A stretch of 64,000 bases of DNA from a virus, in IMG/VR virus record IMGVR_UViG_3300024329_000007, positions 1 through 64,000 of that record, one strand, 5' to 3'. This document shows, one piece after another, positions 7,374-35,150 of the stretch. Under the pieces are notes generated by a model. That model was not told where the DNA came from and made no database searches. It saw nothing but the letters and a program-made list of their open reading frames with translations. Position numbers and translations under genes: made by a program. Position 1 is the first letter of the stretch, and the number at the start of each line of letters is the position of its first letter.

Positions 7374-8582
7374 TTAAAATAATGCCGAAGCATAGATTAA
7401 GTTTGTATCTAGTGTTTGTAAGCCACATGCTACAAGAACTCTATTAAGAGGATCTATCATTGACTTTTCAAATTGAGTATCATAGTCAACTTGTGGTGCA
7501 AACTCATAAGGGTGGTCTCCAGGCATATAAGCGTAAACCTCACTAATTGGACTTTTACAATTATAGATTTTAAGCTTTTCACCATTACCGATTACTTTAT
7601 ACTTTGTCTTATATTTTGCATTAGTATTTAATAAGTAATTATAGTAACCTGCTGCTTTTACATTTGCTGGACATTTTAGACCTACTTGTAATTCAATCTG
7701 ATCATCTACAATATACTTTTCAATATTATTAGTTCTACGATTAAAACTAATATCGTCTATATTAGCCATTTGAAACTCCTTCTTAGTCTCTTTCATAAAA
7801 TTAACTAGAGTTTGCAAATCTTCAGCAGTCGGAGTACTTCCACGCTTAAAAATAATCTTTAATGCTTCAACAAGCTTTTCTCTAACAAATTTAGGAGTTG
7901 AAGATTGGATTGTATCAAAGCCGATAGTCTTAACTTTCTTAAGAGGCTTGTGTCTATCGGTCACTTCTAATTTATCATCCCATGCAAGATTCTGAATATA
8001 CTTTTTCTTTGCTAACCAGATTCCATTATAAGCTAATGATTCTAACTCAAACATTAAGTAATTGTCAGTATTTCTAGCGTCTGCATATTTTTCCATGCAC
8101 TTAGTAATATAATCTTTAAGCCTAAATGCATAAAGCTCTAATATAAAAACATCAATTGCAACTTTTTTATCTTCATCCGGCCATACAATAGATTCATATA
8201 GATCTTGAAATTGAATATAACAAGAATCTGTATCAATGTAAATTACTGCAGGCTTTTCAATCTTACCTTTAACTTTAAATCCAAAATGCTCATGTACTTT
8301 TGTATCTTTATGCCAGAACTCATTTACATATTTGTTTAATATGTCTTCTGAATAAAGAATAGCATTTTTACTCTGTTTAGTAATAGACTCTGCAATATTA
8401 ATATCAAAAAAGTGAAACCATTTATTTCCAAATGCACCGTAAATAGAGTTAAGTGTTAATTTAACAGCCTGTTCGTATGCGGTATACTTAGCCGAAAGCT
8501 GCTCATAATGTTTTATGAGCAGCTCAGCTTCAGTTTGTGAAATTTGATCTATTGGTTTATTTTCTAATTCTTTGATATCCAT
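7374..8582 (-). CDS. 43B: Family B DNA polymerase, C-terminal subunit (gp43B: fingers/palm/thumb)
   Basis: Motif B KLTLNSIYG, motif C YIDTDS, KKKY, TIQSSTP. Confidence 0.93.
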   Translation of the reverse strand: MDIKELENKPIDQISQTEAELLIKHYEQLSAKYTAYEQAVKLTLNSIYGAFGNKWFHFFDINIAESITKQSKNAILYSEDILNKYVNEFWHKDTKVHEHFGFKVKGKIEKPAVIYIDTDSCYIQFQDLYESIVWPDEDKKVAIDVFILELYAFRLKDYITKCMEKYADARNTDNYLMFELESLAYNGIWLAKKKYIQNLAWDDKLEVTDRHKPLKKVKTIGFDTIQSSTPKFVREKLVEALKIIFKRGSTPTAEDLQTLVNFMKETKKEFQMANIDDISFNRRTNNIEKYIVDDQIELQVGLKCPANVKAAGYYNYLLNTNAKYKTKYKVIGNGEKLKIYNCKSPISEVYAYMPGDHPYEFAPQVDYDTQFEKSMIDPLNRVLVACGLQTLDTNLIYASALF

Positions 8583-8585
8583 TAA

Positions 8586-9329
8586 TTACGCAGTTTGGCA
8601 AGTTGATATTGTTAATAATGTATCTGAGTTGTTTGATTGGAATACAACTTTAGAATCAGAAACATATACCGTTTGCTCTTCACGATCTAATAGATTTAAG
8701 TATTTTTTGTAAACTGTTACTTTACCAGTTCCATTTGCTGCAGGATTAACTACAACTTTAAATGATTTACCATCTACATTTACACCAGCAACATCTGATT
8801 TAATATTAAAAGTTTCTTCTTTATCTAGAGAGAATAAGTTCTTTACTTTTCCTAACATGTGAGTATCTAGTGCAAAATCAAATTTACCATTATCTCTAGC
8901 AAATATTGCTTCAACTTGTGTTTCAGTAAGATCTTTAAATCCTAATGTCGGCTCTGAACAAGATAATGTAATTTCTAGTTCGTCATTAAAGATGCGGAAT
9001 GTAGATGCTACTAGATCTTCATCGTTCTCAATAAATTCAATTTCGCCTTTAATAGCATCATGGTCAAAGTGCTTAATAGCATCAATAACTTTGTTTCCTT
9101 CAAAGAATGCGATTTTCATTTCTTTATCTGTATCAGGCCATTCGCTGATTTGGAAGATTTCAGAAACGTCTACGCTGTGACTTTTAACAGCATCTCGTTG
9201 TGGTAAATAAACTACAGATTTTACTCTGCCCTCGGCTACTTTCATATAAATGAAAGAGTCAATTAGCTTGACGCGGTTTATAAACTCTGTCAAAGCGTGT
9301 TGGTCAATACGATCAATTTTTAACTTCAT
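8586..9329 (-). CDS. 45: Sliding clamp (T4 gp45/PCNA-like)
   Basis: 247-aa alpha/beta protein of clamp size immediately upstream of the polymerase subunit, with a beta-rich C-terminus; assignment mainly from context. Confidence 0.65.
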   Translation of the reverse strand: MKLKIDRIDQHALTEFINRVKLIDSFIYMKVAEGRVKSVVYLPQRDAVKSHSVDVSEIFQISEWPDTDKEMKIAFFEGNKVIDAIKHFDHDAIKGEIEFIENDEDLVASTFRIFNDELEITLSCSEPTLGFKDLTETQVEAIFARDNGKFDFALDTHMLGKVKNLFSLDKEETFNIKSDVAGVNVDGKSFKVVVNPAANGTGKVTVYKKYLNLLDREEQTVYVSDSKVVFQSNNSDTLLTISTCQTA

Positions 9330-20457: not shown

Positions 20458-20937
20458 TTATCCAAACTTTTTAATTGTCTTTGTTAATTCATCTAAAGAT
20501 TTACCAACATGTTCACCAAAATCTGCATGAAGATCTTCATCAGCATCTAAAGGCTGCATATCTCTCCACTCTGTATATTTAGAAACAAACAATTCTGATG
20601 CATCCACTATTTTCTTAATATCGGATTTTGCATAGTCCTTTCCATAGTAACTATTAGGATCTACATCCTGTCTTGCTGTTTCGTCAGTAAATGGATTTTT
20701 AATATCGATGCCATCGTAATCAAAATTAAAAGCCTCAAATGATTTTAAATGCTTCATTCTTTTCTTTTTCTTTTTTTTGTACTCTTCTTCTGCGTCACCC
20801 CTGCCGGCAGGAACATCACCAGAACCTACACCACCATCCATTGGCAATACAACAGGTCCCATTCCGCCCATTCCAGCTGGAGTTATATTTTCATTGATAT
20901 CATCAATGAATGACTCAAATGTTGGTACGTATTTCAT
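20458..20937 (-). CDS. Putative capsid-internal protein with two capsid-targeting-like motifs
   Basis: MKYVPTFESFI...INE and internal MKHLKSFEAF. Confidence 0.55.
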   Translation of the reverse strand: MKYVPTFESFIDDINENITPAGMGGMGPVVLPMDGGVGSGDVPAGRGDAEEEYKKKKKKRMKHLKSFEAFNFDYDGIDIKNPFTDETARQDVDPNSYYGKDYAKSDIKKIVDASELFVSKYTEWRDMQPLDADEDLHADFGEHVGKSLDELTKTIKKFG

Positions 20938-20956: not shown

Positions 20957-23872
20957 TTACCAAGCGTAATCAAAAGTTTCAATTTTAGATATTTGATCCT
21001 TAATTGTTTTAGCGTAATTTTTAGCTTCTCTTTCGTAGTAAGATTCAGATTGTCCATATCTTTCTTCAGATTCTTCACCCTGTCTAATGTAATCACAATA
21101 TCTAGAATAGTTATCTAAAATATTTGACATGTGATTAGAAGCATCTCTTAATTTAGCTTCTCTACCTTTAGAGTTTTCTCCTATTTTAATTTCATCATAT
21201 CTAGTTTTATTACCACTCGACAATCCGGCTTTAATTTGTTCTGCTAATTCATCAATAGCCTTTTCAACCATTTTATCAATTGGTAAAGAAGCTGCCTTGG
21301 TAGCTAAAATTTGGTGATATCTGTCTGCGTTAGCTTTCTTAAAAGCTGCATCATCTGTAAATGCAGTTGCACCTTCTTTTGCTCTTGCTCTGTCACCTCT
21401 TAAGTTTTCAGTAGAATACTTCTGTCTAATTAGATCTAAGCTTACAATAATAACTCTATCAGAAACTTCTGCAATTCTTTTACCATTACTTAAACCAGAA
21501 GCACCCCAGCCTCTATATTTCTTGTTTACACCAACTTGATCTGCAGAACCTTTTCTACCATCTTTTTTCCATGAAGTTGTCTTAGCCCATCTAGACCAGT
21601 CGTTAGTATAAAATTCTCTATCACCACCCATAGCTGCTAATAAACACCCGCCACCTGGAATTGTGCTCATTGCATTGTATGACCTAGAATCCTGTGGTAA
21701 ATATGGATTCTCTTTTTCATTATCTGAAATAAAGAAAATAATATTTTTAGAACCACCATGGTTTTTAAATGCTTTTTGTGGGTTATTGTCTAAAATAAAA
21801 TCTTCATCTTGTATTTTATCAAGGGCAACTTTAGTCAGTTGGTAAAAACCACCTGCTAATCTAGCTACGTTTTTTCTAGCGTGTTTTCCTTCTTGGTTAC
21901 TTTGTAAAATACCTGATAATATAGCACTAGATATTTTTTCGTTTAATACGTTATATTCTGACTCAGTAGTAGCTGATTCTTCGATAAAACTAGCTAAATG
22001 TCCATCATCATCCCATCCGTATTTAGAATCGGCTAAAACAGCTTCAATATCTTTTCTTTTTCCAGTTAATTCAACTTCTGGATGTCCTCCTGCTGGGCCA
22101 ATCTCTCTTAATACTTTTAATTCAACTTTGTGTTTCTTTAAAAGTTTTTTAAGTCCTTTTGATTCAGGGTCTGTAGCATCCATTATTACAGTAGCTTCAC
22201 ATAATTTTTCGTCTAGCCTATCAAAGAAGTCAAAGTGTTCACTTTGTAAATCTTCACCATACTTTTCGTCCCATATTTCAGCTAATTCATATTTAGTAAC
22301 TTTACCTTTATACTTATCCATGATTTCAACATAGATACTACCATATTCATATTCAAAATCTTCACCATAAGAAAGATCCCATGCCTTTTCAATATCTTTA
22401 AATGTAAGCTTTTTGGCTTTGGCTTCAGTAACTACTGATTCTTTTACGAAATTCTTAAGATCATCTGGATCTATAGAGTATTCTACGTCATCCTCGTCAC
22501 TTCTAAGAACAACTTCATATTTACTTATGTCCCAAATCTTAAATTCGGCATCTTTATTAAGAGTAGATCCATCTACGTCGTTAGTTATATCGTAAACATC
22601 TCCATCAAAATCATCGCTATGGACTGTAGTTTTAATCTTTTGGCCTTTTTTAAATTTAGCCTCGTTAATAGATTTGCTTGAGCTATTAATAAAGCTTGCA
22701 AATGATTCATGTAAAAATTTATTATTCATTTTTTTTGTATTTTTATTTGTTACTTTATAAGTTTTACCATCGAATTCAAATTCTTCGCTGCCCTCTTCAA
22801 TTGCTTTAGCTCTTGCTCCTAAAAATGCGTTACCTTCTCTAACATTATCAGCAGATTCAGTATATAGGTTTACATAATTTCTACCTTTTTCAGAGTAAAT
22901 TGAAGTGATTTTAAATTCACCATCAATTTTCTTACCAGTATCTTTTTTATAGTATTTAGCATAGTAAGCTTTAAAGAATAAGTTTGGTTCTAGTTCTCCA
23001 AAGAAGTGTGTCATTTTACCCATAAAGAATTTAGCAGATGGATAATAAGTTGTTATATCTGCTTTGGTTTCAGCATCTAAAACACCTTTATCGAAATCTT
23101 TTACAAATTTAGCTTCAGTAACTACTGATTCTTTAACAAGAGAATCTGCGTCTATTGCTATTTCACTTGAAAAAGTCTTTAAACCATTAACCACAATCAT
23201 ACCATCTTTTTGTATACGAGTAACTTCACCTGAATCGAATGGTTTTTTAGAACTTCTGCTTAGAATAGAAACTTTATCTCCTACTCTAAATTTAGCTTCA
23301 GTAACTACAGATTCTTTAATTCTATACTTTTTCATTAAAGATTCAGCATCATCAATTGCATCTTGTAATTCTTGATCGCCCAAATCTGCCCAGTATTCAG
23401 ATCCTCTTTCTCCGTCTAAATAATTCTGAGATATTTGTTCCCATTCATTTTCTGCTTTTCTATCATACATTAAAATACTATCAAGGTCTCCGATTCTGTC
23501 TACAAGAGCGTTAACGCTATAATTTCTATTATCAGAGCCAGCCATTGGACCATATTCATTAAGTTCTTTAGACTTAGAAGTTTTATTTAGCTCACCAAGA
23601 ATTTTAATACCCCATCTCGAAAGTGATACACCATCTTCAGATACATTAAAGTATTTTTTATTTCTAGATTTCCATTGTTTATGATCTCCGGAAAGTTCAG
23701 AAATAATTTTAGTAAATTCTTCTTTAGTAATTACACCATCTTTAATAGCCTCAATAACTGAATTTCTTACACTAGCCGTTTTACCAACAGTCCTTGCTGG
23801 ATGGCGTTCTGTATATTTTCGTTTAAGTGTTAGTTTTTTACCTTCACTCAAGAATTCATTAAATTTTTTCAT
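20957..23872 (-). CDS. Modular putative virion-internal polyprotein, 971 aa
   Basis: N-terminus MKKFNEFLSE; three KESVVTEAK repeats plus LNE, VRE, INE, LCE junctions separating unrelated 60-120-aa modules. Confidence 0.6.
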   Translation of the reverse strand: MKKFNEFLSEGKKLTLKRKYTERHPARTVGKTASVRNSVIEAIKDGVITKEEFTKIISELSGDHKQWKSRNKKYFNVSEDGVSLSRWGIKILGELNKTSKSKELNEYGPMAGSDNRNYSVNALVDRIGDLDSILMYDRKAENEWEQISQNYLDGERGSEYWADLGDQELQDAIDDAESLMKKYRIKESVVTEAKFRVGDKVSILSRSSKKPFDSGEVTRIQKDGMIVVNGLKTFSSEIAIDADSLVKESVVTEAKFVKDFDKGVLDAETKADITTYYPSAKFFMGKMTHFFGELEPNLFFKAYYAKYYKKDTGKKIDGEFKITSIYSEKGRNYVNLYTESADNVREGNAFLGARAKAIEEGSEEFEFDGKTYKVTNKNTKKMNNKFLHESFASFINSSSKSINEAKFKKGQKIKTTVHSDDFDGDVYDITNDVDGSTLNKDAEFKIWDISKYEVVLRSDEDDVEYSIDPDDLKNFVKESVVTEAKAKKLTFKDIEKAWDLSYGEDFEYEYGSIYVEIMDKYKGKVTKYELAEIWDEKYGEDLQSEHFDFFDRLDEKLCEATVIMDATDPESKGLKKLLKKHKVELKVLREIGPAGGHPEVELTGKRKDIEAVLADSKYGWDDDGHLASFIEESATTESEYNVLNEKISSAILSGILQSNQEGKHARKNVARLAGGFYQLTKVALDKIQDEDFILDNNPQKAFKNHGGSKNIIFFISDNEKENPYLPQDSRSYNAMSTIPGGGCLLAAMGGDREFYTNDWSRWAKTTSWKKDGRKGSADQVGVNKKYRGWGASGLSNGKRIAEVSDRVIIVSLDLIRQKYSTENLRGDRARAKEGATAFTDDAAFKKANADRYHQILATKAASLPIDKMVEKAIDELAEQIKAGLSSGNKTRYDEIKIGENSKGREAKLRDASNHMSNILDNYSRYCDYIRQGEESEERYGQSESYYEREAKNYAKTIKDQISKIETFDYAW
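22418..23319 (-). repeat. Three dispersed in-frame repeats encoding KESVVTEAK
   Basis: 23288-23319 and 23105-23136 are 31/32 identical; third copy at 22418-22444. Confidence 0.9.
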
Positions 23873-23874
23873 GT

Positions 23875-24270
23875 TTATTTAAGTTTTTTTAATATACCGT
23901 CTATTTCTGTATATGAGCAATTTGCACCCTTAACTATAAATGATCCATAAGAGATTGAAAGGTTTGCACCTTCACCTCCAGTTTTTACTTGAGTTTTATA
24001 TGCTTCTTCTATAGATGCTTGATCTTCAGCAACAGCAACAACTTTAGGTCTAAATCCAGCGCCTACATTATGATCGTCTAAAGATCTTAAATGCATTTGT
24101 TCTCCATTAACTTCTACTGTATTATGTAGTATTAATGCAAAGTGGGTTTCACCCTTACCAGGTAAATCAAAACCATCAAATGCATATTTGCTAAAATAAT
24201 ATGATCCGAATTTTATTTTTTCATTTACTAAACTATTAGTAAATTCTCCAAATGTTTTTGTATTTTTCAT
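23875..24270 (-). CDS. Putative capsid-internal protein
   Basis: MKNTKTFGEFTNSLVNE leader. Confidence 0.55.
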   Translation of the reverse strand: MKNTKTFGEFTNSLVNEKIKFGSYYFSKYAFDGFDLPGKGETHFALILHNTVEVNGEQMHLRSLDDHNVGAGFRPKVVAVAEDQASIEEAYKTQVKTGGEGANLSISYGSFIVKGANCSYTEIDGILKKLK

Positions 24271-24287
24271 ATTAGTATATTATTTTT

Positions 24288-26141
24288 TTATATATTCTTA
24301 ATAAAATCATTAAATGTTTGGAAATCCGTTTTAGTAGATTCTTGCACAACTCCCATAGAGTCTTCCAGTTTAGACTTTAACTCAGCATACATATTATGTA
24401 ATGCCTTTGGTGTTAGCTTCTTAAAGAGCTTCTCATCACCGTCTAACATTGCATTTCTTACCTGTGTTGCTGATATATTCTTACCAGTTCTAGGGATTTC
24501 AAATAAACCAAAGTCATCTCTAACTCCTAGGTCATCTCTATATTCTTGTTTATCTACTTGGAATCCATAAGTTCTCATTCTATCACTTCCTGTTCCCCAT
24601 AATACTGGTTCGTATTTTGGTCTCATTGCATTAAACATAGTGTCAATACCGCCGGTTGGAATTACAAAAACTTCTTCGATTGGATATTTAGATTTTAAAG
24701 AGTTAATCATTGCTACTTGAGTCTCCTCATCATAAGGTCTCTTAAATGCATCCTCTTTTTTCTTGTTCTTAGCTTTTACTAATAATATTACTACTGGGTA
24801 GCCATTTTGTTTATGAATAGTTTCAACTACTTTAGCATGGCCTAGTGTAAATGGTTGGAATCTACCAACAAACATATTAACTAATTTCTTGCCTTGTTCT
24901 GGGTGGTCCACCTTTAATGCTTCTAAAATAGGACTTGTTTGTGATTTTAAATCTTGATTATTTAAGTATGTTTGAAAATTCATAACCTCATCTTCTTTTA
25001 CATCTCCAACAATTAGGCTTTCAATATTAGTGACTATTGTGTTTACTTTTGACATTAAGTCTTTATTAATAATATCTGTTTCTTTAGTTCTCTTTTTTCT
25101 AAAGCTACCTAATGCTATTTTAAAAAGCTCAGATAAAACTTTATTGTTTACTAATGATATTGTTTTCTCATTCTTAATAAACGCTTTATTAAGTTCAAAA
25201 CCTGGAAGTGATGCAAAGTCAGCAGAATTAAAACTAGTTCCGATATACTTAGTAGCATGCTTATCAATATAAGCATTAAAAATAATTGAAATTAGTTCAA
25301 TATATCTTTCATCAGTTTTTTCTGCGTCTAATTGAATTGTATTAAAATCATAACCGCTCATAAATTCAACTAAGTCTAGAATAGACAGTTGATACATGTC
25401 GGATGGTGTTCTATCATTATTATAATCTCTATCAAATCTTTCTAATTTAAAACTTTTTACATTTTTACCTTCATAGAAATTAATAATAAACGAATCTATA
25501 TCTTTATCTAGAGTATTGTTTAATGCAGCACTAGAAGTAGCAGAATTAAATATATTGTAAACTGCTCTAGTAAAAGATTGTTCTTTAAATTTATTTTTAA
25601 AAGCCTCTTCGGAAAGTTCTAATATATCTAATAAGTCATTAACTTGATCTTCTGATAATCTACCTTGAAATATAATTTGAGGTCTTTGTACATCTAATAA
25701 ATCAGACCAATGATAAAGAATATTTGGGTCTCTAATTACCTTTTTAATTTGACTAGGATTAGTTGAACTTATCGTTTGTATGTGTGTTAATATTAAATTA
25801 TTTTTAGGTAAGGCATCGTACTCAATGTCGATTGCTTTTTTAGTTGGTAAATAATCAAAACCAAATTTCCAATCTGTTGGAAGCTTTTCTAAAAGTTTAG
25901 GATCTAAAGATTTAAAATAATTAATTGCATTTTCATAATATTTAACAATAGTCCTATCAACTTTATTCATAGCTATTTTTGAACCACTTTTATAAAATTC
26001 AAATTCTCCATTAGAAGATCTTTTAACATGAAATGAAGAGGCTTGTATCTTTTCAGATATAAGACTTGTTGATTTTATTAACTTAATAAAATCTTGTCTA
26101 TTACTTGATTCAAAATATGTTTTTAGGTTTTGTAATGCCAT
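24288..26141 (-). CDS. Degenerate ligase-like N-terminal domain fused to a cytidylyltransferase-like (HxGH) domain
   Basis: C-terminal GRFQPFTLGH, GSDR, ISATQVR; N-terminal SEKIQAS (degenerate EKxDG); ILE|A junction before the second domain. Confidence 0.7.
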   Translation of the reverse strand: MALQNLKTYFESSNRQDFIKLIKSTSLISEKIQASSFHVKRSSNGEFEFYKSGSKIAMNKVDRTIVKYYENAINYFKSLDPKLLEKLPTDWKFGFDYLPTKKAIDIEYDALPKNNLILTHIQTISSTNPSQIKKVIRDPNILYHWSDLLDVQRPQIIFQGRLSEDQVNDLLDILELSEEAFKNKFKEQSFTRAVYNIFNSATSSAALNNTLDKDIDSFIINFYEGKNVKSFKLERFDRDYNNDRTPSDMYQLSILDLVEFMSGYDFNTIQLDAEKTDERYIELISIIFNAYIDKHATKYIGTSFNSADFASLPGFELNKAFIKNEKTISLVNNKVLSELFKIALGSFRKKRTKETDIINKDLMSKVNTIVTNIESLIVGDVKEDEVMNFQTYLNNQDLKSQTSPILEALKVDHPEQGKKLVNMFVGRFQPFTLGHAKVVETIHKQNGYPVVILLVKAKNKKKEDAFKRPYDEETQVAMINSLKSKYPIEEVFVIPTGGIDTMFNAMRPKYEPVLWGTGSDRMRTYGFQVDKQEYRDDLGVRDDFGLFEIPRTGKNISATQVRNAMLDGDEKLFKKLTPKALHNMYAELKSKLEDSMGVVQESTKTDFQTFNDFIKNI

Positions 26142-26143
26142 TG

Positions 26144-27445
26144 TTATCTACCGTATTTAATAATTCCCATTAATTGATTAATTGCAGCAAAAGTTCCAGT
26201 TAGTTTATAAGTATGTCCTTTATATCTAAATACAAGGCCTTCGGTTGGTATGATAGATTCAATACCTCCAATTCTATCTAAACGTTCTAGTTCTTTAGCT
26301 ACTTTATTTATCTGAGTTATATCTCCGCCCTTTTTAATCTTATCAGCTTCTGTTCTAATTTGATTATGCAGTCTCTGCATTTCTTTATCTGGATTTGCAG
26401 CCACAAAGTTAGAAGCGTTCTTTAAGATAACAGAACCTAATTCTAAGAAAAGATCTTCAAAAGGTCTAATATTTTCTTTATATTTCTTTTTAACATCTTC
26501 TTTGTCAAATCTTTTAACAGCAGCTGCTTCATCTTTTCCTATTTCCTTTGCAAGACTTCTTAGATTAAGTGTTTTCTTATCTCCATAAGCCCATCTTAAT
26601 AATAAGCCTTCTTTATAGTCTTGTTGTAAATCGGGGAAGTTTTTATCAATAGTTTCTCTCCACCACATTTCATGATATCTAGAAACCTCATCTGCATCTG
26701 TTAATCCATAACGATCTCTTAGCGCTTCAACCTTTTTTATAAACTTAAGTTGGTTCTTTTCAAAATCAATATCCTTACCTATCTTAATAATTTGTGGTGG
26801 AATAACTGTAAAGACTTTACCAATATTAGCGTTAACTTTTTCTAAAGCAGCAGCAATTGATTTACCGTACTTAGGCTCTTCGCCAATTATATTACCATTA
26901 CCATCTGTTATTTTAATTCCATGAAATTGAATAACGTCTCTATCATAATAGATAACATTTGGGTTTTTAGAGTAGATAAGCTCCATGTTCATAAAGTTCT
27001 TACCATTATCAAATGCTTCTAAATCTTTATCAGATAACTTGACTAGAGAAGTTGCTAAATCTTTAGCAGCAAAAATATAAGTTTCTTCAACTAATTTTGA
27101 TGCATGTCCAGTAAACATATCGATAATACCATTAAGGTCTAATGGGTTTGCCATTTGTCCTTTATTTCTAGCAAACATTGCTTGGCCATCCTTTACAGTG
27201 ACAAAAAGATTTTGCCCATCAGTTTTTTCAGTAGGCTCTTCTTCAAAATTAAGTTCACCGCTAAGTCCAGATTGGATTAATTTTTTAAAGTCTCCAAATG
27301 TTAATTGTTTATTATCAAATGGATGTGACATGTGTCCTGCGGCACCACCTTCAAGTATTAAAGCCTCATTAACCGAAAATGAAGGAGCCTCTTTCAAAGT
27401 CCTTCTTTCCAGTACAAATTCTCTATAAGATTGTAGTTTTTTCAT
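26144..27445 (-). CDS. RNA/DNA-ligase-like nucleotidyltransferase with a capsid-targeting-like leader
   Basis: Motif I EKTDG, motif IV EGLVF, motif V YKLTG; leader MKKLQSYREFVLE and ILE|GGAAGHMSHPFD. Confidence 0.65.
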   Translation of the reverse strand: MKKLQSYREFVLERRTLKEAPSFSVNEALILEGGAAGHMSHPFDNKQLTFGDFKKLIQSGLSGELNFEEEPTEKTDGQNLFVTVKDGQAMFARNKGQMANPLDLNGIIDMFTGHASKLVEETYIFAAKDLATSLVKLSDKDLEAFDNGKNFMNMELIYSKNPNVIYYDRDVIQFHGIKITDGNGNIIGEEPKYGKSIAAALEKVNANIGKVFTVIPPQIIKIGKDIDFEKNQLKFIKKVEALRDRYGLTDADEVSRYHEMWWRETIDKNFPDLQQDYKEGLLLRWAYGDKKTLNLRSLAKEIGKDEAAAVKRFDKEDVKKKYKENIRPFEDLFLELGSVILKNASNFVAANPDKEMQRLHNQIRTEADKIKKGGDITQINKVAKELERLDRIGGIESIIPTEGLVFRYKGHTYKLTGTFAAINQLMGIIKYGR

Positions 27446-27446
27446 A

Positions 27447-29519
27447 TTATGCTAGTGATGATTGTAAAATTCCTGCACATTTTCCGTAGTCACCATCGCA
27501 TTTTTTTAATATGCCGGCAACAACCTCGTCTGCTTTAGCCTCATCAAATTCTTCTCCAAAAGCTTTTTGTAATACTTCGTATGCGTATTCTTTAAAATCT
27601 TCTTCAGATTTAATTTCAGCCTCGTTTACAGATTCAAAAAGAGAATTAAAATCATCTAATAAAGATTGTCCCATTCTTTCTTCTTTAAGCTCTTGTAAAA
27701 ATAGAGCAGTTCCTTCAACAATCCCTTGGCCAGACCATCCTGCCGCATTAGCGATATCTGAATAGTATTTGTCTAGAATCCTTTTTAAAGTAGTAGTTCC
27801 TAGTTTTACAAAGTGTCCACCTAGACCTGGTAACTTAATCTCTAAAGCCGCCATTTTACCTTTAATGTTTCTAGAAACAATTTTTTCTCTATGGAAGTTA
27901 GCGTCTGTCATTGCTTCTTCAAAAAGATATTTAACACAACCTCTAATAGACTCATGAGACATTGCACCAAAATCTGGTAAAGTCTTATAGAATATTTTCT
28001 TATATTGTGTAACTACCTTTTTAGCATCTCTTTTGCCGTCAACTTTAATAGCTTCATTAACTACTGATTCATTGCACATTGAAACTAATTCTTGTGCAAT
28101 CTTTTTTGCTTTAGAACCTTTATGTCCATAAGATTCAACTGTATCTAAAGCATCTTCCATTTCCATGCCATGTAATTCTCCCATGTCTCCTCCTCTTTCA
28201 TCTAAAAGATCCTGTAAGATATTTTCAGCTTCTGATTCATTAACTACTGATTCAAAATAATCTTCATAGTCAGAGATTGAGTCTGGTCCCCATACATCAG
28301 CTAAAACTTTTTCGATATCTTCTCTTTTACCGGTTAATTTAACTTCTGGGTAACCGTGGTCACCTTCTTCTTTTTGAACTTTCATTTTAACTTTATTCTT
28401 CTTTAAAGATGTAGTTAAGGGTTTAAATTTAGTTGGGTGTATATCGTCATCGTTTCCAAATTCTATACCCGAAAGAGATGTTTCATTAACAACTGATTCA
28501 AAGGTTGATGATGGCATTAGTTCTTTATCGCCATATATGTCTGCTACCAACCAATTTTTATTCTCTTCATCCCATAAATAAACCCACTCAGCGCCGGCTC
28601 CATTTGAAACATCATTTAAATATTGGTCTACTTTTTTATATTGTCCTGTTGTTTGCATGTCACCGCTTTCACCACGATCTCTTCCGTAAAAAATAGTATA
28701 ACCTCTAGTCGGATTAGAAAAACTATGTTTCTTACCTATTGATTTATCTAAAAATGAAATACCAGCCTTTCCTAATTTCATTAATTGCTTAATGTCACTT
28801 TCGCTATATCCTTTTAACATTGGTAGCATGTGCTCTGGGTAACCATCAGAATGTACGTATGTTGATGTGATTTTACCACTCTTACTAAGAATACCAATTT
28901 GAGATCTAGTTGATTCGTTAACCGCAAGCGACTCAAATGCTGGAACTAACTCTGCGTTTCCGTCTACATGTAGCATATACCATTTACCATCTCGCTCGTC
29001 AAAAAGATAAACATATTCTGCCCAACCAATATCTTCTAGATATTTAGACATGTTTTTAATCTTTCCTTTTTGATTTTCCATGTCGCCATAGTAATTCATA
29101 TACCTTGGGTCTTCTTCTAATCCAGAGCTACCTCCATTTTTAAGAACCATGTTTAGTGGCGAACCACCCTTTAAATATGTCATCTTAATAAGTGGTAACA
29201 TTGCTTCTGGATAAGAATCAGCATGTGTGTATACACTTTCTATATTACCTCTTTTGTCTATTTTACCAAAATGGCCTCTAGTGGCTTCTGTTAGTAATAA
29301 AATAGACTCATTAAGGCCTAAATTTTTTAACTTGTCAAAAAATTCAAATCTTTTTTCTTCTTCTAATTCTTTTATTCGAGTTACTCCATATTCAGATAAA
29401 AGTTCTTTAAATAGATCTGCTTCGTTAGATCTTTTAGCGTTCTGTTTTTTCTCTAATGCAACAGTATCTTTTTCATGTTTTGCTGCAGAAAATTCAGCAA
29501 ATGAATTTAATTTCTTCAT
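27447..29519 (-). CDS. Modular putative virion-internal polyprotein, 690 aa
   Basis: MKKLNSFAEF leader; junctions LLTE, ESLAVNE, 3x ESVVNE, ESVNE; two tandem (A/S)TR..HxDxYPE modules. Confidence 0.6.
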   Translation of the reverse strand: MKKLNSFAEFSAAKHEKDTVALEKKQNAKRSNEADLFKELLSEYGVTRIKELEEEKRFEFFDKLKNLGLNESILLLTEATRGHFGKIDKRGNIESVYTHADSYPEAMLPLIKMTYLKGGSPLNMVLKNGGSSGLEEDPRYMNYYGDMENQKGKIKNMSKYLEDIGWAEYVYLFDERDGKWYMLHVDGNAELVPAFESLAVNESTRSQIGILSKSGKITSTYVHSDGYPEHMLPMLKGYSESDIKQLMKLGKAGISFLDKSIGKKHSFSNPTRGYTIFYGRDRGESGDMQTTGQYKKVDQYLNDVSNGAGAEWVYLWDEENKNWLVADIYGDKELMPSSTFESVVNETSLSGIEFGNDDDIHPTKFKPLTTSLKKNKVKMKVQKEEGDHGYPEVKLTGKREDIEKVLADVWGPDSISDYEDYFESVVNESEAENILQDLLDERGGDMGELHGMEMEDALDTVESYGHKGSKAKKIAQELVSMCNESVVNEAIKVDGKRDAKKVVTQYKKIFYKTLPDFGAMSHESIRGCVKYLFEEAMTDANFHREKIVSRNIKGKMAALEIKLPGLGGHFVKLGTTTLKRILDKYYSDIANAAGWSGQGIVEGTALFLQELKEERMGQSLLDDFNSLFESVNEAEIKSEEDFKEYAYEVLQKAFGEEFDEAKADEVVAGILKKCDGDYGKCAGILQSSLA
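28053..28500 (-). repeat. Three dispersed in-frame repeats encoding ESVVNE
   Basis: TTCATTAAC(T/A)ACTGATTCA at 28053-28071, 28236-28254 and 28482-28500 (plus strand). Confidence 0.9.
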
Positions 29520-29552: not shown

Positions 29553-31061
29553 TTATATATCCCCCTCAAAAGTTACGTTTTTAATATCATACTTAAACTT
29601 CTGTTCTTTATAGATTTTCTGCCTAGCTTTTGAGTGTCTTATTAAGTAGTTATCCCAATCCGGTGAGCTTAAGTCATCTACAAAGTCAATAATGTTTACA
29701 CTATCCTTTGATTTATGTTGCCTTAAACCTCTACCAATAGATTGCCTAATGATTACTTCTGATTTAAATGATTCTGTAAAGAATATGTTGTGGATTTTCT
29801 TGATGGATATACCAGTTGAGAATGTACCGTATGAAGCGACGATAACGACTTCTTCTCCGGCTTCCATTTTCTTTTTATATTCTTCTCTAATATCTTTATC
29901 AATTCCGCCATCAACATAATAAACTATTTTATTACTTTCTTGCCTAAGTTTGTCATATATCTTTCGGCCATGTTCAATTCTGTGAAAAAGAACGAGGCTA
30001 TTTCTCTTAACTCTTGAAATTACACTTGTTATAAAGTTAAGTCTTCCAGGGGAATTAATTATATAGTTCTGTTCAAATTTAAAAACATCCTTGCTTTCAT
30101 ATCTATTCTGTGACATCTCTCTAAAAGCATCCTTTGTAGATTGTGCAGCATAATCCATTTTAATTACCTTAACGTGACATTGTGCAATATGTCCTTCATT
30201 TTGTAAAAAGTTTGCAGACACCTCCGTAATTACCGGTCCAGTATAAGCCATAAGAGTAAGTCTATCCAATGTGTTTGCTTTTGGTATTGTACCAGAGAGT
30301 CCGCTTCTATATTCAGCGTTAACACATTTTTGTAGAATAGTTTTAATTGATGTAGACTTGGCCTTATGTGTTTCATCAATAATAACAGCATCAAACTGTT
30401 CAAAATATTCTTTATCTTTTTTAACAAGGGATTGATAAGTACCAACTACTACATTTCTACCCGGCCTAATCTTTTGGCCAGAATAGATTTGTTGTACTTT
30501 AATATTTGCCCTGCCTTTCCAATTATAGTCTAAAAAATCTTCAGTGGCCTGTACTACAAGAGAAACATTAGGTACAATAAAGAGTATTCTTTTTGCCTTT
30601 TGTTTTTCTAACATATATGCTACTGTAAGAAATGAAATTAAAGTTTTCCCGGCAGAAGTTGCTAATTCAGATAAGCACTTTCTAAATTTAAGGATGTTAA
30701 ATGCAGCCTCAATCTGATAATCTCTTGGAGTTATTTGAGAGCCCTCAAAAAATTCTAAGGCCCATTCGGTAAAAGTTTCTTGATTAATATTTCTATCAAA
30801 CAATTCAGTAATACCATTTATTTTTAATTCGTATTTATATTCTTTACAAACATTCATCACTTCTCGCCAAAGACCAGAAGGAATCCATTTGTCATCTTTT
30901 ATATAAGATATGTAGCCATCCCATAGTCCCTTTTTAACCAATGGGTGAAATCTCCAATTTTCTACCCTACGGTTTAAAGAAATATTGAGCTGTTCGATTT
31001 CCATTTCTGTAGCCGAATCAACTCTTAGCAATTGCTTATTATCTGTTAAACTTATTTCCAC
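29553..31061 (-). CDS. uvsW: SF2 RNA-DNA/DNA-DNA helicase
   Basis: PRDYQ, TSAGKT, DETH, SGT, STGISI, QSIGRGLR. Confidence 0.95.
   Translation of the reverse strand: MEISLTDNKQLLRVDSATEMEIEQLNISLNRRVENWRFHPLVKKGLWDGYISYIKDDKWIPSGLWREVMNVCKEYKYELKINGITELFDRNINQETFTEWALEFFEGSQITPRDYQIEAAFNILKFRKCLSELATSAGKTLISFLTVAYMLEKQKAKRILFIVPNVSLVVQATEDFLDYNWKGRANIKVQQIYSGQKIRPGRNVVVGTYQSLVKKDKEYFEQFDAVIIDETHKAKSTSIKTILQKCVNAEYRSGLSGTIPKANTLDRLTLMAYTGPVITEVSANFLQNEGHIAQCHVKVIKMDYAAQSTKDAFREMSQNRYESKDVFKFEQNYIINSPGRLNFITSVISRVKRNSLVLFHRIEHGRKIYDKLRQESNKIVYYVDGGIDKDIREEYKKKMEAGEEVVIVASYGTFSTGISIKKIHNIFFTESFKSEVIIRQSIGRGLRQHKSKDSVNIIDFVDDLSSPDWDNYLIRHSKARQKIYKEQKFKYDIKNVTFEGDI
29554..29561 (-). promoter_or_regulatory. 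GATATATA late-type promoter of the internal-protein operon
   Basis: Motif overlaps the end of uvsW, about 35 nt upstream of the 690-aa gene; it recurs before other late genes. Confidence 0.6.
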
Positions 31062-34775: not shown

Positions 34776-35150
34776 TTAAATTCTTTTACCCATTGCAGCA
34801 CCAAGAGCGGCACCAACTAATCTGGAAGTTAATAAATCGTAAAAAATACCTTTTTGAATTCCTAAAACTTTAGCAATAACCTTTCCAATTGATTTACCTA
34901 ATGCAAATCCAGCTAAACCACCTATAATAGAACCTAGAATACCTTCATTAGTCATCTCTTCATTTAAACGATCTAAATCATAAGTACCATCCTTTCTTTT
35001 ATATTCAGCTTCAAATGCTTCAATAGCCGCATCTACTTCAGCTTCTAATTCTGGAGTCCACTCTTCTTGTAAGCCCTCTTTGACTAAAGAATAGTCCTGC
35101 TCACTAATTTCGTTTTCTACTAAATAATCGTTAAATGTTTTCATATTCAT
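34776..35150 (-). CDS. Putative virion-internal protein with a glycine-zipper membrane segment
   Basis: MNMKTFNDYLVE leader, acidic N-half, then NE|GILGSIIGGLAGFALG...LVGAALGAAMG. Confidence 0.6.
   Translation of the reverse strand: MNMKTFNDYLVENEISEQDYSLVKEGLQEEWTPELEAEVDAAIEAFEAEYKRKDGTYDLDRLNEEMTNEGILGSIIGGLAGFALGKSIGKVIAKVLGIQKGIFYDLLTSRLVGAALGAAMGKRI

Follow-up and report, generated by a model that had tools for sequence, protein, structure and literature searches.

Tandem phrog_1987 domains in a predicted capsid-cargo polyprotein of a phage start flush with putative head-protease sites

The DNA analysed (the window) is the first 64 kb, positions 1 to 64,000, of a 79.9-kb IMG/VR virus record (IMGVR_UViG_3300024329_000007). 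On its minus strand, at positions 27447-29519, an open reading frame (ORF) of 690 amino acids (aa), hereafter P0001, contains two tandem copies of a domain of the family phrog_1987, each beginning exactly where a phage head protease is predicted to cut. Across about 210 relatives, the domain was preceded by the start Met in 96 and by Glu in 110, a junction pattern far beyond chance. The explanation that we consider likely joins four elements: P0001 would be capsid cargo, it would be cleaved by a gp21-type protease, the phrog_1987 domain would require a free N-terminus, and the freed domain would be an entry-phase effector. In the proposed sequence of events, the 690-aa polyprotein would be brought into the prohead by a T4-like capsid-targeting leader and cleaved there, behind every hydrophobic-x-Glu linker, by the gp21-type (Peptidase_S77) head protease. 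The freed pieces would include the tandem phrog_1987 paralogues, with the N-termini A-T-R and S-T-R, as in free-standing members after Met excision. The freed domain would then act in establishment or counter-defence upon the entry of foreign DNA.

Family membership and conserved residues

The two modules, A (residues 79-202) and B (residues 203-346), were compared by BLASTP and are paralogues (34% identity, E 1e-19). They lie directly after the predicted cuts LLTE|ATRG and AVNE|STRS, as an earlier note on this DNA, made from its letters, had proposed; the coordinates that it gave for the pair (28482-29285) are correct, on the minus strand and inside the ORF at 27447-29519. Both modules matched positions 2-122 of the 128-position phrog_1987 profile, starting at the first residue of the module (E 7e-9 for module A and 9e-17 for module B). 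A phmmer search of 1.84 billion cluster representatives returned 2086 relatives of module B at E <= 1e-3.

The residues conserved in the family, in module B numbering, are T2, R3, Y19, H21, D23, G24, Y25, Y76, R78, D79, G81, Y112 and W121, with at least 90% conservation of T2 and R3 across the family. Module B has every one of them, in the motifs STRS, YVHSDGYPE, YGRDRGE and EWVYLWD..W. Module A retains the T, R, Y, H, D and Y residues and the C-terminal Y and W, has Ser in place of G24 and lacks R-D-R-G-E; it belongs to a diverged subtype (TRG.FG, H.DSYPE) that was also found in P0163, P0135, L005/L006 and L024. All the motifs quoted in the earlier note were thus recovered in P0001, YGRDRGE being present in module B and absent from module A.

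Homologues from cultured phages are free-standing and start M-[A/G]-T-[R/H]-S: CcrColossus gp083, CBB_356, XbC2_352, Vibrio phage EniLVp02_0185, cyanophage S-SSM4 CYXG_00034 and P-HM1 PHM1_059. These six proteins bear out the earlier note's description of stand-alone phage proteins with an M(S/A/G)TRS-type start. The alignments also began where they had been expected to, at residue 2 of the stand-alone proteins, both with the profile and by tblastn, in which S203 of the query fell on residue 2 of the annotated coding sequence in every alignment to a cultured-phage homologue. A second, diverged paralogue occurs in jumbo Erwinia phages (Erwinia phage pEa_SNUABM_44, L094:652-1092, locus tag 00004); it starts M-G-T-P, with Pro for Arg, and is still N-terminally flush.

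What precedes the domain

Domain starts were located in 163 proteins with a profile built from 68 short members, which gave 162 N-terminally complete instances. Glu occupied position -1 in 96 of the 162; T-R is retained in 94 of the 96, and the remaining two have T-N instead. All 94 Glu-preceded T-R copies have Ile, Leu or Val at -3, T, N or E predominates at P2, and P1' is Gly in 65, Ser in 18 and Ala in 11. The start Met was found at -1 in 64 instances (60 T-R members and four variants), followed by Ser (32), Ala (22) or Gly (10) as residue 2. An internal Met stood there in two proteins (P0080 and P0103), in which the start was probably mis-called. No other residue preceded the domain in any of the 162 instances (0/162). 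IMG/VR copies fetched independently read hydrophobic-x-E|[S/A/G]TR in 14 of 14 cases.

Ser, Ala and Gly at residue 2 all permit removal of the Met by methionine aminopeptidase. Once mature, the stand-alone protein therefore has the N-terminus that is predicted for the cleavage product, with S, A or G on both sides of the comparison, as had been suggested. Among the approximately 210 relatives checked, no N-terminal extension without a cut site was found, apart from the two ambiguous internal-Met cases, and no alignment ran across the linker among the relatives examined. The alternation of Met with hydrophobic-x-Glu before one conserved N-terminus amounts to a natural experiment on whether the linkers are cut. 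It supports cutting at that exact bond in the hydrophobic-x-Glu linkers and is the best sequence-only evidence available for it; it also points to a constraint on the N-terminus itself, and so gives the polyprotein reading the independent support that the earlier note had claimed.

Cleavage could be real and the flush junction a mere by-product of the joining of stand-alone genes at linker cassettes, the linker Glu replacing the Met, with a preference of the head protease and of the N-end rule for small P1' residues and no special role for the N-terminus. The other junctions of P0001 also have a small P1' residue (T, S, A and A), and relatives shuffle their modules at hydrophobic-x-Glu linkers, some having only the A type, some only the B type and some both. 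Against this stands the exactness of the N-terminal boundary. Exactly two residues, Met and a small residue, precede the Thr in 60 of 60 Met-start members, none of which has any extra N-terminal residue though the tail after the last conserved Trp varies from 5 to 564 residues. A search with the stand-alone query P0014, limited to proteins of more than 266 aa, gave 32 uncleaved multidomain relatives, and all 32 keep the domain first, at the extreme N-terminus (M|[S/A]TRS). The 110 diverged embedded copies show no insertion or deletion between Glu and residue 1; the distance from the Trp to the next site ranges from 12 to 30 aa in such copies, yet that from Glu to residue 1 is always 0 aa, and T2 and R3 are strongly conserved. 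We therefore hold the by-product account to be unlikely and judge from this comparative evidence that the phrog_1987 family rather likely needs a free N-terminus at this exact position.

Three long metagenomic proteins (P0052, P0104 and P0129) have the domain first (M|ATRS), followed by modules that are connected by another repeated linker, which reads F/Y-A-K-G-G in both P0052 and P0104 but M-A-T-G-G in P0129. Such linkers could represent an alternative kind of polyprotein joint, possibly cleaved behind Gly-Gly. The C-terminal extensions of these and similar proteins contained no Pfam domain.

Anatomy of the polyprotein

The features of P0001, in order from its N-terminus, were as follows (window coordinates).

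27447-29519, minus strand: P0001 polyprotein ORF, 690 aa, a leader then six modules with hydrophobic-x-Glu linkers between them
29490-29519, minus strand: N-terminal leader MKKLNSFAEF, residues 1-10, resembling by eye only the T4 capsid-targeting sequence MKTYQEFIAE
29286-29519, minus strand: predicted propeptide, residues 1-78, helical over 7-66 in the AlphaFold2 (AF2) precursor model, with PHROG matches to phrog_18562 and phrog_5053
29307-29315, minus strand: L-N-E, residues 69-71, N-terminal member of a tandem pair of predicted cut sites (LNE|SILLLTE|A)
29286-29294, minus strand: L-T-E, residues 76-78, predicted cut site flush with module A; predicted local distance difference test (pLDDT) score below 50 at 77-81
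28914-29285, minus strand: module A, residues 79-202, phrog_1987 domain of the TRG.FG / H.DSYPE subtype
28914-28922, minus strand: V-N-E, residues 200-202, predicted cut site flush with module B; pLDDT below 50 at 196-201
28482-28913, minus strand: module B, residues 203-346, full phrog_1987 domain and a C-terminal spacer ending VVNE
28482-28490, minus strand: V-N-E, residues 344-346, predicted cut site closing module B
28236-28481, minus strand: module 3, residues 347-428, with a phrog_5922 match, common to the 971-aa neighbour
28053-28235, minus strand: module 4, residues 429-489, ending VVNE, with a related stretch in P0026
27621-28052, minus strand: module 5, residues 490-633, ending SVNE, with a related stretch in P0018
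27450-27620, minus strand: module 6, residues 634-690, C-terminal, beginning AEIKSEEDFKEYA and kept at the end of related polyproteins

Residues were anchored on the DNA at A79 of ATRG (29283-29285), S203 of STRS (28911-28913) and E346 of VVNE (28482-28484). Seven hydrophobic-x-Glu sites with near-identical linkers are present (LNE71, LTE78, VNE202, VNE346, VNE428, VNE489 and VNE633). As the motif occurs at five further P0001 junctions besides those that precede the two domains, and near the N-termini of neighbouring ORFs, it is a linker motif and not part of the phrog_1987 domain. A doublet of the form NES..hxE, like LNE|SILLLTE|A, also precedes the domain in relatives. The whole ORF gave no Pfam domain, and in particular no peptidase domain.

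The 971-aa neighbour (20957-23872, minus strand) is a second polyprotein, with the leader MKKFNEFLSE|G, three KESVVTE|AK linkers and a phrog_5922-type module in common with P0001. The module with which it opens (KRKYTERHPA...) also stands ahead of the phrog_1987 domain in P0008, P0009, P0034 and P0163.

Cleavage and packaging

The head proteases of the T4 type, of phiKZ and of SPN3US cut C-terminal to Glu, and extra propeptide sites have been discussed for SPN3US (PMC5694885); the P0001 doublet LNE|SILLLTE|A parallels the latter. The T4 internal proteins begin with a capsid-targeting sequence (CTS) of 10 residues, in which positions 8 and 10 are determinants of processing (PMC9026906), and its letters, MKTYQEFIAE, are given in PMC8442874. 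The P0001 linkers fit the rule of T4 gp21, with Ile, Leu or Val at P3 and Glu at P1, and by eye the leader of P0001 and those of five neighbouring ORFs (MKKLQSYREFVLE, MKNTKTFGEFTNSLVNE, MKKFNEFLSE, MKYVPTFESFIDDINE and MNMKTFNDYLVE) resemble the T4 CTS. Short single-domain precursors, which are frequent in marine metagenomes, look like the T4 internal proteins: P0006, for example, has a 15-residue leader ending LLTE and then STRS, and P0007 likewise has a CTS-like leader. Of five larger contigs encoding relatives of the polyprotein, three (G006, G007 and G010) gave a Peptidase_S77 match above the Pfam cut-off. Contig G006 (151 kb) encodes both a domain-bearing polyprotein (LVTE|ATRS) and a 620-aa fusion of protease and a putative scaffold. 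On these observations, P0001 is probably packaged and cut.

P0001 might also be an ordinary multidomain protein that is never cleaved, its ESVVNE repeats being flexible linkers homogenized by recombination and the Glu a motif of the embedded subfamily. The absence of a protease gene from this fragment agrees with such an account. It does not fit the adherence of all 94 embedded T-R copies to the gp21 rule, the same motif at the end of the short CTS-like leaders of the single-domain precursors P0006 and P0007, or the Peptidase_S77 genes of related phages, and the strict alternation of Met and Glu would be hard to explain; we regard it as very improbable.

In the 620-aa ORF of G006 (L092:52-1914, minus strand), a contig of a related jumbo phage, Peptidase_S77 forms the N-terminal part and the rest is repetitive, acidic, helical and scaffold-like; the next ORF starts MKNIKLFEEFITE. 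Contig G003 has Peptidase_S77 and no copy of the phrog_1987 domain. CTS-like leaders ending in hydrophobic-x-Glu were noted in four ORFs of the window (26144-27445, 23875-24270, 20458-20937 and 34776-35150, all on the minus strand) and in one beyond it (64591-65748 of the genome, plus strand). The leaders of these five ORFs are MKKLQSYREFVLE, MKNTKTFGEFTNSLVNE, MKYVPTFESFIDDINE, MNMKTFNDYLVE and MNLHNFADFKLLTE; nearby replication genes have no such leader.

Predicted structure and the N-terminus

Module B was modelled alone with AF2 at a pLDDT of 96 and a predicted template modelling score of 0.90. Residues 1-10 averaged a pLDDT of 95, so the N-terminus is ordered in the model and is not a floppy tail; strands 4-9 and 14-22 form a hairpin. 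In a model of residues 1-346 of P0001, pLDDT fell below 50 at 77-81, 196-201 and 344-346, which are the junctions, while the leader was helical and module B was confidently folded.

The need for a free N-terminus would likely arise from the alpha-amino end, Thr2 and Arg3 lying beside H-x-D-G-Y and forming with it one binding or catalytic site. Two patterns of residue loss both fit a composite N-terminal site of this kind: the module-A-type copies retain T-R and H-x-D-x-Y and have lost RDRGE, and a distant branch of the family on plasmids (described below) has lost T-R and D-G-Y together and retains YYGRD. The earlier suggestion that the domain is inactive until head maturation is possible as a conjecture and is not required by the data; silencing of the embedded domain is not obviously needed, because infected cells produce the stand-alone copies in free form. 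If the free N-terminus matters as proposed, N-terminal tags would probably inactivate the protein and expression constructs should be tagged at the C-terminus.

A conserved Thr next to the N-terminus and an apparent requirement for a free N-terminus would also be expected of an N-terminal nucleophile (Ntn) hydrolase that processes itself to expose its nucleophile. Residue 1, however, is Ser, Ala or Gly, two of which cannot be nucleophiles, and the Thr is residue 2; autoprocessing would tolerate any propeptide, and none was seen. The modelled domain has about 125 aa, and no Ntn chain was recovered among the Foldseek or VIA-align matches (best Z 4.2). With residue 1 often Ala or Gly, Thr at position 2 and no Ntn fold recovered, the Ntn reading was rejected as barely credible.

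Functional context

In P0190 (1190 aa), the phrog_1987 domain stands ahead of ArdC_N, MPTase-PolyVal, AAA_28 and NrS-1 HBD, an architecture that makes P0190 a classical polyvalent protein as defined by Iyer et al. (2017; PMC5512222). Other fusions of the domain are to pentapeptide repeats.

The distant plasmid branch was aligned by hhalign with a probability of 99.5% (E 7e-23), again from residue 1. Of the 1994 plasmid records on which it was found, 1875 are conjugative. On an IncI-type plasmid (locus L097:7001-7435, NZ_CP103470.1 26733-27167), the distant homologue P0213 lies just downstream of ardA, between ssb/psiB/psiA and nikA/nikB with the origin of transfer (oriT), that is, in the leading region. 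Anti-defence genes are enriched in leading regions, which are the first to be expressed in the recipient (PMC11541004, PMC12672017). The RefSeq label of the plasmid-branch protein, 'post-segregation killing protein PndC', looks like a mis-annotation.

Because the domain occurs in putative capsid cargo, in P0001 and in many relatives, and in an ArdC-type fusion, and because its distant branch lies in a plasmid leading region next to ardA, a kind of region rich in anti-defence genes, we tentatively take it as a possible entry-phase effector, involved in establishment or counter-defence. A further extension of this idea is doubtful at present: the domain would be an enzyme or ligand binder of new fold that needs its own free alpha-amino end to complete the active site, silent within the polyprotein, activated by the head protease and injected to disarm defences or to help establishment, in use among T4-like and jumbo phages and ArdC-type proteins and diverged on plasmids. 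A very large family, with copies among cultured cyanophages and jumbo phages, that combines an unusual, testable property with an entry-phase context is in any case a good candidate for screens of counter-defence and establishment functions.

Several points weigh against the joint explanation of capsid cargo, cleavage, required N-terminus and entry-phase role. The likeness between the leader MKKLNSFAEF and the T4 CTS is a visual judgement only. A Pfam search of the 79.9-kb record, which is 27% complete, did not find Peptidase_S77, and no protease, capsid or portal gene is present there. The junction counts come from a biased sample, the 150 best matches having been chosen by their rank with an embedded copy as the query, and the cluster representatives have common ancestors, so these counts are not independent events. 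The T-R pair is not universal in the wider family, as the plasmid branch starts M-T-V-S-S and has neither T-R nor D-G-Y. The placement of residues 1-3 opposite residues 20-22, beside the invariant H21 and D23, was derived from strand register only and would apply to the model. As for function, the entry-phase role is drawn from context only: Pfam, NCBIfam and PADLOC gave nothing significant for either module, for the entire ORF or for 68 members of the family, a sequence profile search of the PDB gave nothing below E 0.38, and Foldseek with the module B model found no PDB match at E <= 0.001.

Other searches gave similar results. A wide VIA-align run had its best Z score, 4.2, with an unrelated chain, and its weak anticodon-binding, Brix and RNase-H-like rows were treated as no match. 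BFVD matched only uncharacterized phage proteins and the ESM Atlas only unnamed viral clusters, and no literature on phrog_1987 was found.

Comparison with known systems

The closest known system is that of the T4 internal proteins and Alt, which carry a CTS and are processed by gp21. Like IPI, IPII, IPIII and Alt, P0001 has a short leader that by eye is of the MK..(F/Y).EF type and a motif for cutting after (L/I)-x-E by Peptidase_S77, the cut being predicted here. The T4 internal proteins and Alt are delivered with the DNA and have counter-defence roles (PMC9026906, PMC3012670, PMC5694885). T4 has one cargo protein per gene, whereas P0001, known here from sequence alone, joins several unrelated, shuffled modules in one ORF, with repeated sites and two tandem copies of one family. 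It also differs from the T4 cargo in that hundreds of free-standing relatives serve as a check on the boundary of one module.

Strings of unrelated effector domains delivered on entry, as predicted for P0001, are also formed by the polyvalent proteins (Iyer et al., 2017; PMC5512222). Processing of the polyvalent proteins is attributed to an embedded MPTase peptidase, whereas P0001 has no peptidase domain and has repeated predicted sites for a head protease acting in trans; their named LPD domains would be found in Pfam, which has no model for the phrog_1987 domain. The leading-region genes ardA, psiB and ssb of conjugative plasmids (PMC11541004, PMC12672017) share the theme of being first into the cell, although the plasmid branch of the family differs in lacking T-R and D-G-Y.

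A precisely placed new N-terminus, generated by proteolysis or Met excision, is a known means of activation. It underlies the function of picornavirus 3Dpol released from 3CD, of chymotrypsin-type zymogens and of the tautomerase and Ntn families. None of these is known to be related to phrog_1987 in sequence or fold, and the dependence proposed for phrog_1987 is deduced from comparative anatomy. No description of activation by a newly made N-terminus in phage cargo was found. New here are the quantitative junction rule with its controls, the finding that every uncleaved fusion has the domain at its N-terminus, the outcome of the fold analysis, and the links to plasmid leading regions and ArdC-type proteins.

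Genome setting and other observations

CheckV estimated the completeness of the 79.9-kb record at 27%, which would correspond to a genome of about 300 kb. Its G+C content is 32%, and it carries T4-like replication genes (UvsX, a gp46/47-like SbcCD, a DnaB-type helicase and ribonucleotide reductase) as well as baseplate genes. The 690-aa ORF is placed downstream of a block of helicase, primase and single-stranded DNA-binding protein genes and upstream of more ORFs of unknown function. A Megablast search with 20 kb of the window found no match to cultured phages. The source is probably an uncultivated T4-related jumbo phage, with the 690-aa ORF as its capsid-cargo polyprotein.

A scan of the window for the T4 late-promoter consensus TATAAATA gave no enrichment. 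The sequence GATATATAA is present at 29554-29562 (minus strand), some 35 nucleotides before the start of P0001, within a highly AT-rich gap of 33 nucleotides after the helicase gene.

Between the two polyproteins, a 617-aa protein (24288-26141, minus strand) has a cytidylyltransferase-like domain (PF01467, residues 423-563, E 2.6e-9). Its PHROG matches are to cytidyltransferase families and, weakly, to nicotinamide mononucleotide adenylyltransferase families. Elsewhere in the window, a 402-aa ORF (7374-8582, minus strand) matches DNA polymerase over the C-terminal part of the PHROG polymerase profiles only. The adjoining 247-aa ORF (8586-9329, minus strand) has no match, and the polymerase gene may be split.

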